From the NCBI GenBank assembly GCA_003133815.1, contig PKZR01000270.1, positions 2,569 through 35,072 on the forward strand: DNA of 32,504 nucleotides, in the 5' to 3' direction. The notes under the pieces are model-generated. The model was given only the letters and a program-made list of their open reading frames with translations, was not told where the DNA came from and did no database searches. This document shows, one piece after another, positions 8,255-13,644 of the stretch (the stretch's first letter is position 1; each line of letters begins with the position of its first letter). The stretch is from Limisphaerales bacterium. Its GTDB lineage: Bacteria > Verrucomicrobiota > Verrucomicrobiia > Limisphaerales > UBA11358. Both the position numbers and the translations under genes were made by a program.

Positions 8255-10886
<2,632 letters not shown>

Positions 10887-10888
10887 GG

Positions 10889-10923
10889 ATGTGAGGTTCA
10901 ACCATTTTTCACATTGTTGTCAA
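10889..10923 (-). promoter_or_regulatory. Candidate amtB promoter: perfect TTGACA plus inverted repeat ATGTGA-N14-TCACAT
   Basis: TTGACA on the minus strand at 10923..10918. Inverted-repeat arms at 10889-10894 and 10909-10914, just upstream of ATG 10886. Confidence 0.4.
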
Positions 10924-10986
10924 TGCATGTATTGCTCAAAACTTGTTCGATTTTGTCCGCATTCGCGATTAGCCTGCCCGTCGCAA

Positions 10987-13644
10987 ATGTCCGCCGAAAC
11001 CCAACTCACGCCCATGATGGCGCAGTATCGCCGCATCAAAGGCGAACTGCCCAAGGATGCGCTGCTGCTCTTCCGCCTCGGCGATTTTTACGAGATGTTC
11101 TTCGAGGATGCGCAGGCCGGCGCGCAGCTCCTCAATCTTTCCCTCACCGCCCGCAACGGGATCCCGATGTGCGGCCTGCCGCATCACGCCGCCAATAGCT
11201 ACATCGCGCGCATTTTGAAAAGCGGACGCAAGGTCGCCATTTGCGATCAAACGGAGGAAGCACGTCCTGGAAAATTGGTGAACCGCGAGGTCACGCAAAT
11301 CCTCTCGCCCGGCACACATTTTGACGAACGGATGCTCGTCGCGGAACGAAATAATTTTTTGGCGTCAGTTTATCCGTCGGGAAAAATCTTCGGCCTCGCG
11401 CTGGTGGATTTGACCACCGGCGATTTTCTGACGACCGAACTGGAAAACGAATCCGCTTTGCTCGCCGAACTGGAACGCTTGCGGCCGGCGGAAATTATTT
11501 TCCCGACCGAAGCGGTGGCGCTGCGTGATTTGCTGCGCGGCGCATTCCGGATTTTGAGCGGCTACGACGACTGGACGTTCGCGCCGGAAACCGCGTTTTA
11601 CACGGTGAAGGAACAGTTCAAAGTCGCCTCGCTCGATGGCTTCGGCCTTAAAGACAAAACCGCCGCCATCGGCGCGGCGGGCGGCGCGCTGCATTATCTC
11701 ACACAAAACCTGCGGCGCGACGTAAAGCACCTCACGCGCATTTCTTTTTACCAGCGCAGCGATTTTCTCACACTCGATTACACGACGCTGCGGCACCTGG
11801 AAATTCTCGAACCGCAGCATCACGATGCCCCGCGCAACGCCAGTCTTTATGGCGCGCTGAATAAAACCGTCACGCCGATGGGCGCGCGGCTCCTGCGCAA
11901 CTGGCTCTCGCAGCCGCTCGCCAAAGTGGACCCCATTCACCAGCGGCAAGACGCAGTGGAAACGTTCATCAACAATTCATTCGGCCTCGATGCCTTTCGT
12001 CAGCAGTTAGCGCAGGTGCGCGATTTGGAACGGACGCTCGGCCGTTTGAGTTCCGGCAGCGGCAATGCTCGCGATTTGGTCGCATTGCGTTTGGCACTTG
12101 ATCAAATCCCCGCGCTGAAACAAATTCTCCAAAACCTCGTGGCCGCCGACGTGAAGAGGCTCAATTTAAAAGAAGAAAGTCAGAGCCTCCTGACGTCGGC
12201 TGTTACAAACGAATTAAAAGACGCGCCGTCGAAGAATTCCTGCCTGCTGGCGGCCTTAAATTCGCAAATCTCCGAATCACCCGACCTCGTCGAATTAATT
12301 TCCCGCGCCATCGTGGACGAGCCGCCGCTGCCCATCAAGGAAGGCGGCATGATCCGCGACGGCTTCGACGCGGCACTCGACGAGCTCCGCACCGCCCAGC
12401 GCGGCGGCAAAGATTGGATCGCCAAGTTGCAAGCCGATGAGATCACCGCCACCGGAATTTCGTCGCTCAAAGTCCGTTTCAATTCGGTTTTTGGATATTA
12501 CATCGAAGTCACCAAGTCCAATCTCGACAAGGTGCCGCCGCATTATCATCGCAAACAGACCGTCGCGAATGGCGAGCGTTTCATCACGCCGGAACTGAAA
12601 GCGATGGAGGGAAAAATTCTCGGCGCGGAAGAGCGCAGCGTGAAGCTGGAATACGAAATTTTCCAGCGCGTGCGCGAGGAAGTTTTGGGCCAGTTGCCAA
12701 AAATCCAGCAAACCGCTTCCGCGCTGGCACAACTAGACGTGCTCGCGTCGTTCGCCGTAATCGCACGGCTGCATAATTATTGCCGTCCGCAAATTTCCGA
12801 CGAAGGCGTTTTGCAAATCCGCGACGGCCGGCATCCGGTGTTGGAACAGCAGCTGGTCGAGGAACGCTTTGTGCCGAATGACACGGGGCTGGCTTCTTTG
12901 GAGCGCGGGCTTCAGCCCGCTTCATTATCTGCAGACGAAAGTGCGTTGAAGCGGCCTGAAGGCCGCGCTCCACAAATCGCTTTGATCACCGGGCCGAACA
13001 TGGCGGGCAAATCCACTTACATCCGGCAGGTCGCGCTGCTCACGCTGCTCGCGCACACGGGCTGTTTTGTGCCGGCGGCGGAAGCGCGAATCGACCTCGT
13101 GGACCGTATTTTTACGCGCATCGGCGCTAGCGACGATTTGTCGCGCGGGCAATCCACGTTCATGGTGGAGATGACCGAGACGGCGAACATTTTGAACAAC
13201 GCCACGCCGCGCAGCCTTATCGTGCTGGACGAAATCGGGCGCGGCACCAGCACGTTCGACGGACTTTCGCTCGCATGGAGCATCGTGGAATTCCTGCACA
13301 ATCAGGTCGGCGCCAAAACGCTGTTCGCCACGCACTATCACGAGTTAACCGAGCTTTCAGCCCGCCTGCCGCGCATCAAGAATTTCAACGTCGCCGTGCG
13401 CGAATGGCATGATCAGATCGTGTTCCTCCGTAAAATCGTCGAGGGCGGCACGGACAAAAGCTATGGCATCCAGGTCGCGCGGCTCGCGGGCGTGCCGAAA
13501 GAGGTTTTGGAACGCGCCAAACAAATTCTTGGCAACTTGGAAGAATCCGAGCTGACGCCGGAAGGCAACGTGCGCCCGCAAGCGCGTCAGCGCAGCAAAC
13601 TGCAGAATCTTCCCACGCCGCCGCAGATGGATTTGTTCGGGTAA
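10987..13644 (+). CDS. mutS: DNA mismatch repair protein MutS (with two in-frame palindromic insertions)
   Basis: LTPMMAQY, FRLGDFYEMF, GRHPV, Walker A GPNMAGKST, GQSTFMVEM, LDEIGRGTST, FATHYHEL and C-terminal clamp motif QMDLF. Start reassigned to ATG 10987. Confidence 0.97.
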   Translation: MSAETQLTPMMAQYRRIKGELPKDALLLFRLGDFYEMFFEDAQAGAQLLNLSLTARNGIPMCGLPHHAANSYIARILKSGRKVAICDQTEEARPGKLVNREVTQILSPGTHFDERMLVAERNNFLASVYPSGKIFGLALVDLTTGDFLTTELENESALLAELERLRPAEIIFPTEAVALRDLLRGAFRILSGYDDWTFAPETAFYTVKEQFKVASLDGFGLKDKTAAIGAAGGALHYLTQNLRRDVKHLTRISFYQRSDFLTLDYTTLRHLEILEPQHHDAPRNASLYGALNKTVTPMGARLLRNWLSQPLAKVDPIHQRQDAVETFINNSFGLDAFRQQLAQVRDLERTLGRLSSGSGNARDLVALRLALDQIPALKQILQNLVAADVKRLNLKEESQSLLTSAVTNELKDAPSKNSCLLAALNSQISESPDLVELISRAIVDEPPLPIKEGGMIRDGFDAALDELRTAQRGGKDWIAKLQADEITATGISSLKVRFNSVFGYYIEVTKSNLDKVPPHYHRKQTVANGERFITPELKAMEGKILGAEERSVKLEYEIFQRVREEVLGQLPKIQQTASALAQLDVLASFAVIARLHNYCRPQISDEGVLQIRDGRHPVLEQQLVEERFVPNDTGLASLERGLQPASLSADESALKRPEGRAPQIALITGPNMAGKSTYIRQVALLTLLAHTGCFVPAAEARIDLVDRIFTRIGASDDLSRGQSTFMVEMTETANILNNATPRSLIVLDEIGRGTSTFDGLSLAWSIVEFLHNQVGAKTLFATHYHELTELSARLPRIKNFNVAVREWHDQIVFLRKIVEGGTDKSYGIQVARLAGVPKEVLERAKQILGNLEESELTPEGNVRPQARQRSKLQNLPTPPQMDLFG
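12139..12206. repeat. REP-like inverted repeat (family A) inside mutS
   Basis: GTGGCCGCCGACGTGAAGAGGCTC (12139-12162), 20-nt A-rich spacer, GAGCCTCCTGACGTCGGCTGTTAC (12183-12206). 19 of 24 positions are complementary. Confidence 0.8.
12899..12972. repeat. REP-like inverted repeat (family B) inside mutS
   Basis: TGGAGCGCGGGCTTCAGCCCGCTTCA (12899-12924), 22-nt spacer, TGAAGCGGCCTGAAGGCCGCGCTCCA (12947-12972). 24 of 26 positions are complementary and each arm is itself a hairpin. Confidence 0.88.

Follow-up and report, generated by a model that had tools for sequence, protein, structure and literature searches.

An in-frame palindromic doublet, probably of a dispersed Verrucomicrobiota repeat family, in the loop before the Walker A strand of MutS

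The window discussed here is a stretch of 32,504 nucleotides from a Limisphaerales bacterium (assembly GCA_003133815.1, contig PKZR01000270.1, positions 2,569 to 35,072 of the forward strand), whose genome, referred to as G000, is a draft of 3.6 Mb in 469 contigs that is 82% complete. Its forward strand carries the repair gene mutS, listed as an open reading frame (ORF) of 919 codons (10885..13644); the gene is intact and matches the Pfam domains MutS_I, II, III, IV and V with E-values from 5e-35 to 2e-86. Within domain V, just ahead of the Walker A strand, a loop of 31 codons (12883..12975, forward strand) runs from TGLAS to APQ between the segments FVPND and IALITGPNMAGKS, and an alignment to E. 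coli MutS places it as an insertion at E. coli residues 597-608. The loop contains a palindromic doublet of 74 nt (12899..12972, forward strand), assigned to a repeat family designated F1, which is in frame with mutS and is translated as LERGLQPASLSADESALKRPEGRAP (residues 672-696). An earlier interpretation made from the letters alone (the sequence-only reading) had put the encoded peptide directly between FVPND and the next strand; the peptide is indeed in frame at this site, but the TGLAS that precedes LERGLQPASLSADESALKRPEGRAP and the Q that follows it had been omitted.

The doublet is a genuine feature of the sequence. Its two arms of 26 nt (12899-12924 on the left, 12947-12972 on the right, all coordinates referring to the forward strand) are complementary at 24 of 26 positions (92%), as had been claimed, and enclose a spacer of 22 nt (12925..12946). 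The left arm opens with the tag GGAGCGC, continues into a mini-hairpin (GCGGGC-TTCA-GCCCGC) and ends in TTCA; the right arm is the inverted unit and contains the mini-hairpin GCGGCC-TGAA-GGCCGC. Both mismatched positions are G/C swaps that preserve the 6-bp stem and the 4-nt loop of each arm. A core of 72 nt, or 24 codons (12900-12971), is framed by one outer complementary pair, T..A. Inverted repeats with at least 24 of 26 complementary positions and a spacer of 3-60 nt occur exactly once in the whole window, while the best scores in 30 dinucleotide-preserving shuffles were 18-20 of 26. When an 82-nt stretch comprising the doublet was folded, the predicted energy was -49.7 kcal/mol for RNA (z -8.07) and -31.6 kcal/mol for DNA (z -8.25), and none of 200 shuffles was as stable in either case. 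A scan of the doublet against Rfam returned only sub-threshold hairpins of miRNA precursors, the best of which reached 23.5 bits where the gathering score is 104.

The assembly is well supported at the doublet: DNA contigs from two runs of other studies cover 12600-13002 and 12775-13002 with neither a difference nor a gap, and the assemblies of five other species show the same 93-nt mutS loop. A 151-nt contig from a metatranscriptome library spans 12822-12972 with no difference, carried-over DNA being a possible source. The records of the runs are labelled peat and permafrost, and the RNA runs X15 and X16 leave parts of the stretch uncovered. The proposal that such repeats generate new protein sequence is backed only by the translation potential of the element and one RNA-library contig. 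One X16 RNA contig with a 75-nt “skip” joint was set aside, since its 6 differences in 86 nt show that it derives from a relative and is uninformative on this organism.

The F1 unit is widely dispersed among relatives of G000. The 21-nt unit GGAGCGCGGSCTTCAGSCCGC, allowing up to 2 mismatches, is present in 62 of 101 genomes of the genus (a tally that includes the unpublished G074, used there only) with up to 68 matches per genome (44+24), against at most one match per strand for the reversed pattern. In each of the other five genomes with the mutS insert there are 7 to 25 matches. The exact 25-nt unit was found in at least 121 stretches among species-representative genomes, and the titles of the listed records nearly all name Verrucomicrobiota, Limisphaerales or Pedosphaera, a few naming other taxa. 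At 99 of the 121 listed loci the unit forms an inverted doublet, with sizes grouped around 72 nt and 94-108 nt, which bears out the earlier description of the element as two inverted self-hairpin units. The partner arms, which the search did not constrain, preserve all three inner base pairs in 100 of 107 cases among the matches listed and do so with at least 8 stem variants (GCG/CGC 52, GCC/GGC 21, GCA/TGC 11, GGC/GCC 9, and others). The compensatory nature of the mismatches, first noticed within the single element, is therefore a family-wide covariation. Among the same matches the consensus gains one C..G pair: of 117 doublets, 62 have C at position -1 and 53 have G at position +1. [quoted passage not shown] In its 25-nt length, 6-bp stem, 4-nt loop and stem covariation the unit resembles a repetitive extragenic palindromic (REP) sequence, and the arrangement of two inverted units around a short spacer is that of a REP doublet, or REPIN; the many dispersed copies that also characterize REPs are found in the congeners and not in the 82%-complete draft of G000. 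At four loci (L040, L043, L049 and L058) the F1 doublet is nested within an outer inverted repeat, GGTGTCCTAATTTG ... CAAATTAGGACACC, which suggests either that one repeat was inserted into another or that the whole is a composite element of greater length.

F1 copies are also read in frame elsewhere. In its three frames the right arm gives *SGLKAALH, EAA*RPRST and KRPEGRAPQ, of which only the third is without a stop, and since the arm is open in one frame only, translated F1 copies share the same terminal peptide; in-frame copies in other genes end in KR(P/A)E(G/A)RAP. The frame is open over the entire 178-407 nt examined at 48 of the 121 listed loci. Pfam domains above the cut-off lie in the same frame as the element in a number of unrelated genes: FAD_oxidored (L217), UvrB_inter as in Mfd (L224), SWI2_SNF2 (L232), MmeI domains (L237, L238, L259 and L269), Glyco_transf_4 (L246) and GSP_synth (L266), together with MutS_V in two further species. 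An N_methyl match at L276 (23.3 against a cut-off of 21.2) lies on one side of the element, which possibly stands 5' of the gene start. The search for the encoded peptide in unrelated proteins, proposed from the sequence alone, is thus positive, with ERGLQ.AS ... KRPEGRAP present in frame in proteins of other genomes, and F1 is one family inserted in frame in unrelated intact genes, as are the palindromic elements of Rickettsia and intragenic REPs. Proteins that handle DNA account for 8 of the 13 listed loci with an in-frame Pfam domain (MutS 2, Mfd 1, SNF2 1, MmeI 4). Two of these loci, L237 and L238, lie about 1.6 kb apart on one public contig and place two F1 doublets in frame in a single MmeI-type restriction-modification gene; one of them precedes the methyltransferase domain, and the other separates the target recognition (TRD) domain from the C-terminal one.

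The site occupied by F1 in mutS is used by many other repeats. The loop could be read in 90 of 95 mutS loci (85 from a sample of the genus, the other 10 from different genera within the order), the remaining five being mostly frameshifted in their records. It is short in 18 of the 90 (8-9 residues, with the pattern T-x-(L/F)-(D/N)-x-x-(T/I/L)-Q) and extended in 72 (15-54 residues, mostly with strongly negative folding energies). Peptide motifs assign 56 of the 72 extended loops to families (F1 6, F2 6, F3 8, F4 5, F5 16, F6 7, F7 2, F8 5 and F9 1) and leave 16 in a class “other”. Three of these families were counted in five host genomes each and are genome-wide repeats, with 10-136 matches for F3, 2-50 for F2 and 30-99 for F6, against at most 4 per genome in the controls. 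F2, F3 and F4 begin with GTAG, F1 and F6 with GGAGCGC. Moreover, metagenome contigs with loose ends at 12973 and 12979 show that relatives carry different repeats at the exact site. Judged from these sequences, the loop before Walker A is a hotspot occupied by at least nine repeat families, in agreement with the sequence-only reading. The loop of L313 (G103) has an F2 insert with an F8-like piece (SEIGNRKSE) in its spacer, possibly a nested insertion, and in three others (L008, L327 and L339) additional residues (LEK...) follow an F4 element.

Within the six mutS genes that hold F1 (G000, G007, G012, G092, G048 and G051, all with gap-free 93-nt loops), the hairpin arms are conserved and the encoded peptide spacer is not. 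Segregating sites number 5 of 50 in the arms and 13 of 22 in the spacer (Fisher p 3e-5), in a comparison that is biased in that the six inserts were recognised via an arm-encoded peptide motif; decayed copies would be classed as “other” since the arms encode that motif. By codon position, 3 of 17 third positions and 2 of 33 first and second positions segregate in the arms, whereas in 600 nt of flanking mutS sequence 123 of 200 third positions do so (Fisher p 6e-4). Either arm alone would have satisfied the motif, and each of the six species has kept the pair intact. Changes between orthologues can be compensatory: L001 has T..A as its terminal pair where L003, L307 and L311 have C..G, and in L002 GGGC/GCCC has become GGCC/GGCC. 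F2, F3, F4 and F6 show a similar arm trend, under the same bias in a stronger form.

The history of the loop was compared with a mutS tree of 93 rows and 2473 columns from which the insert columns had been removed. Family labels require 37 changes on this tree, against a mean of 47.9 and a minimum of 41 for shuffled labels; the short or long state of the loop requires 16, against a shuffled mean of 16.6. A single clade for the six F1 hosts is compatible with the approximately unbiased (AU) test (p-AU 0.089), and a split into short and long loops is rejected (p-AU 8.5e-105), the groups in this last case having been named after the tree was seen. Long alleles differ from their short sisters beyond the insert itself, in that four loop codons beside it differ too, and these flanking codons are common to long alleles regardless of the family they hold. 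Such observations could reflect either repeated local insertion and replacement or an exchange of entire loops in short patches, the crossovers lying in the near-invariant flanks.

Taken together, the element is very probably one copy of a REP-doublet (REPIN-like) family of Limisphaerales and Pedosphaera-type Verrucomicrobiota that was inserted into the MutS loop ancestrally, is read through, and has had its arms maintained. The unit of the family is the GGAGCGC tag followed by the 6-bp/4-nt hairpin, two such units being inverted around a 22-nt spacer. An ancestor shared by six or more species would have received a copy in a short surface loop before the Walker A strand. With a length of 72 nt and one frame of its right arm open, the doublet can be read through as some 24 additional residues that leave MutS intact. 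The spacer has since drifted in a roughly neutral manner, with both arms remaining near the family consensus, synonymous positions included. Since the arms do so while the spacer drifts, something appears to act on their nucleotide sequence, whether selection for a hairpin in the mRNA or the DNA, or a correction that matches them to other copies. The lack of a target-site duplication would be consistent with a single-strand mechanism of the HUH/Y1 type.

Several observations weigh against this account. Neither arm has a further copy in the draft of G000 at up to 5 mismatches in 25, and a blastn-short search with the arms found chance matches of 13-14 nt only; an absence of other genomic copies, which the sequence-only reading had named as fatal to its interpretation, is thus literally what the draft shows, even though the unit is multi-copy in the 62 congeners mentioned above. 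A mobiliser linked to the unit was not found either. Y1_Tnp (PF01797) is matched in 96 of the 101 genomes of the genus, but the F1 unit lies within 1.5 kb on either side of none of 42 Y1_Tnp loci, 30 of which derive from 37 matches in the copy-rich genomes G042, G083, G085, G064 and G066. Likewise, none of 13 GIY-YIG loci from five copy-rich genomes is bracketed by the unit, although one F1 doublet lies just upstream of a GIY-YIG match, within an open frame of 570 codons. The GTAG tag of classical REPs, which are linked to REP-associated tyrosine transposases (RAYTs), and the alternative tag CGTC are absent from the F1 unit, which begins with (C)GGAGCGC. Since none of these 42 Y1 loci carries the unit and the GTAG tag is lacking, F1, although anatomically REP- or REPIN-like in sequence, qualifies as a REPIN by architecture only; of the earlier designation as a REPIN, the architecture of a dispersed family stands and the membership is not borne out. 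The bias of the arm comparison and the possible origin of the spanning RNA-library contig from carried-over DNA count on the same side. Finally, vertical descent fits poorly because the spacer distances between F1 inserts are bimodal (1 of 22 or 8-12 of 22) while gene-wide distances are flat (0.13-0.175).

The sole Y1_Tnp gene of G000, IS200/RAYT-like, lies outside the window (contig C271:880-1700) and is flanked by other inverted repeats, GCGCCGTAGGCGCG... and AAGCTCCGT.AGGAGCGGCAT...; in sequence the locus resembles a REPtron or TIRtron belonging to a different family. In L042 a 453-codon ORF between two F1 doublets was considered as a mobiliser and rejected, since its translation, judged by eye, resembles an ordinary AMP-binding enzyme of the acyl-CoA-synthetase type.

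The strongest competing explanation holds that the element is a selfish repeat in a permissive loop, without effect on MutS, its mRNA or the DNA, that will eventually decay, and that arm conservation reflects the way the copies were recognised or occasional gene conversion. This is quite possible, if somewhat short of probable. The spacer drifts freely, at 13 of 22 sites, the loop tolerates 8-54 residues and at least nine families among 90 MutS proteins, the 16 “other” loops resemble decayed remnants, and F1 also occurs in unrelated proteins; Di Nocera et al. (2013; PMC3733652) hold that insertions in flexible loops may be neutral. However, third positions of the arms vary far less than those of the flanks (3/17 against 123/200), both arms are intact in six species where one would have sufficed for the motif, and G000 has no other copy to serve as a donor for conversion.

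These same arms would, conversely, be expected if the 26-bp stem were kept for a role of its own, be it in the mutS mRNA (for example as a target of a double-strand RNase, or by setting the dosage of MutS through a pause in translation) or in the DNA (as a protein-binding or cruciform site). The conservation of the arms at the nucleotide level beside a neutral spacer, the same trend in F2, F3, F4 and F6 in what is a biased test, the compensatory changes in orthologues and the great stability of the structure all argue in this direction. A functional hairpin is nevertheless unlikely, as Rfam has no matching family (23.5 bits against 104), and no specific sequence can be needed when 18 of 90 MutS proteins have no insert and others carry unrelated repeats.

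Whole loops may also have been moved between species by short-patch recombination, with crossovers in the near-invariant codons of FVPND and QIALITGPNMAGKS, in which case the F1 inserts would not be simply vertical. Loop state is decoupled from the gene tree (16 changes against 16.6), a short/long split is rejected, long alleles share flanking codons whatever family they contain and differ there from their short sisters, and the F1 spacers are bimodal where gene distances are flat. On the other hand, among 58 nearest-neighbour pairs divergence within 0-60 nt of the loop was 0.11-0.13 as compared with 0.14-0.18 further away, so that no excess was found in a test of low power; nor did a per-site association profile reveal a linkage block at the loop, or windowed identity between sisters with different loops a dip near it, both tests having low power because the flanks are nearly invariant. 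As the short and long groups were moreover named after the tree was seen, such exchange seems distinctly unlikely as the main explanation.

A bolder proposal, which at present must be called improbable, would make the loop a dedicated landing pad of the Limisphaerales, where many hairpin families are inserted, exchanged and removed at a codon-precise site independently of the history of the gene, and where stems are selected because a long hairpin in the mutS message or gene would tune the amount of MutS and hence the rates of mutation and recombination. As to an assembly or binning artefact, or a chance origin in place, the fragmentation of the draft (469 contigs) and the lack of a second copy in G000 might invite such an explanation, but it is refuted by identical contigs from two other studies and the same insert in the assemblies of five other species, and with an intact frame, more than 100 family copies elsewhere and shuffles that never came near 24 of 26 its probability is practically nil.

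Elements of this general kind are already known. The classic case is that of the Rickettsia palindromic elements (RPEs; Ogata et al. 2000, 2002), which, according to PMC10969869, are inserted in frame in unrelated housekeeping genes and encode peptides predicted to be compatible with the three-dimensional fold and function of the host protein. F1 is similarly palindromic, in frame in unrelated genes and read as an extra peptide; it differs in being a REP doublet of 72-74 nt in free-living Verrucomicrobiota of peat and permafrost, whereas RPEs are described there as about 150 bp long and belong to an alphaproteobacterial obligate intracellular parasite. The closest parallel is provided by the intragenic GTAG/CGTC REPs of Di Nocera, De Gregorio and Rocco (2013; PMC3733652). 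Passages of that paper report that their dimers encode 20-30 residues, that Opitutus terrae (Verrucomicrobia) and R. conorii have the largest numbers of such elements, that many lie in replication and repair genes (uvrA, uvrB, recB, polA, dnaE2, ligase), and that two Xanthomonas species have different REPs at approximately one position in recB. Like these, F1 is composed of short hairpin units that mostly form head-to-head dimers in frame in genes. Unlike them, it carries the tag GGAGCGC instead of GTAG or CGTC, and the use of one loop by at least nine families in one genus and the arm conservation at synonymous sites set the present case apart from what those passages describe. The term “mutS” does not occur in the text or the four searched supplements of PMC3733652, and a full-text literature search for in-frame palindromic insertions near the mutS Walker A motif returned unrelated matches only.

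REPINs (Bertels and Rainey 2011; PMC3337134 and PMC3116915) are pairs of inverted REPs around a spacer which make use of RAYTs, as PMC3337134 defines them. F1 shares with them tens of copies per genome in some hosts, and no target-site duplication was seen in F1; it differs in that the unit flanks no RAYT/Y1 gene in 42 loci, is single copy in G000 and has GGAG in place of GTAG. MITEs, as PMC10969869 describes them, are likewise small, non-coding elements with terminal inverted repeats that sometimes form in-frame fusions, but F1 has no target-site duplication in the 117 doublets among the matches listed and no known parent insertion sequence. The phenomenon as such is thus known from Rickettsia RPEs and from intragenic REP dimers in Opitutus repair genes; what is new is a GGAGCGC-tagged family without a visible transposase, the scale on which the MutS loop is reused, and arm conservation at the nucleotide level.

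In-frame palindromes of this sort show how selfish DNA adds peptide segments to conserved enzymes, and the 90 mutS genes form a natural series in which one loop is either empty or filled by one of at least nine repeat families. They also pose a puzzle, as the history of the MutS loop is uncoupled from that of the gene. Since mutS sets mutation and recombination rates, a hairpin that altered the dosage of MutS in any way would in turn influence how the genome evolves, an idea that Di Nocera et al. (2013; PMC3733652) raised speculatively for other repair genes.

MutS itself has further variable sites, at about residues 217-222 and 420-447. The latter contains a second palindrome (12145-12200, forward strand), located in the linker between domains III and IV, with arms of 18 nt that are complementary at 16 of 18 positions, a spacer of 20 nt, and a translation that reads VAADVKRLNLKEESQSLLTSAVT. 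It is multi-copy in G000, with 18 matches per arm at up to 2 mismatches, is common to L001, L002, L004, L008 and L024, and resembles the GTAG-type F2 that occupies the pre-Walker A loop of other species. As it differs from F1, the earlier observation of two different families in one gene holds. The sequence-only reading is therefore partly supported and on the whole largely correct, its architecture, families and hotspot being retained, its REPIN membership not being borne out and its description of mutS as essential being abandoned, for mutS is not an essential gene.

A structure prediction for residues 560-919 from a 76-row alignment was too poor (mean predicted local distance difference test score, pLDDT, 49.9) to judge the insert and was discarded. 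The listed start of mutS is probably too early, because the 35 codons upstream of the Met of MSAETQL (10885-10989 of the window) are without conservation in relatives; most alignments of relatives begin at residues 27-37 of the ORF, and the sequence points to that Met, near codon 36, as the likely true start. In seven relatives (L294, L297, L316, L330, L340, L356 and L017) the frame changes between tblastn pieces of mutS. Because several of the assemblies consist of few contigs (4 for G098, 10 for G109 and 20 for G111), indel errors in the assembly consensus are just as likely as true pseudogenes. Finally, the mutS of L024 (G028), a genome labelled as another genus and family of the order, falls inside the genus clade in a FastTree mutS tree, which could reflect either gene transfer or the position of a classification boundary.

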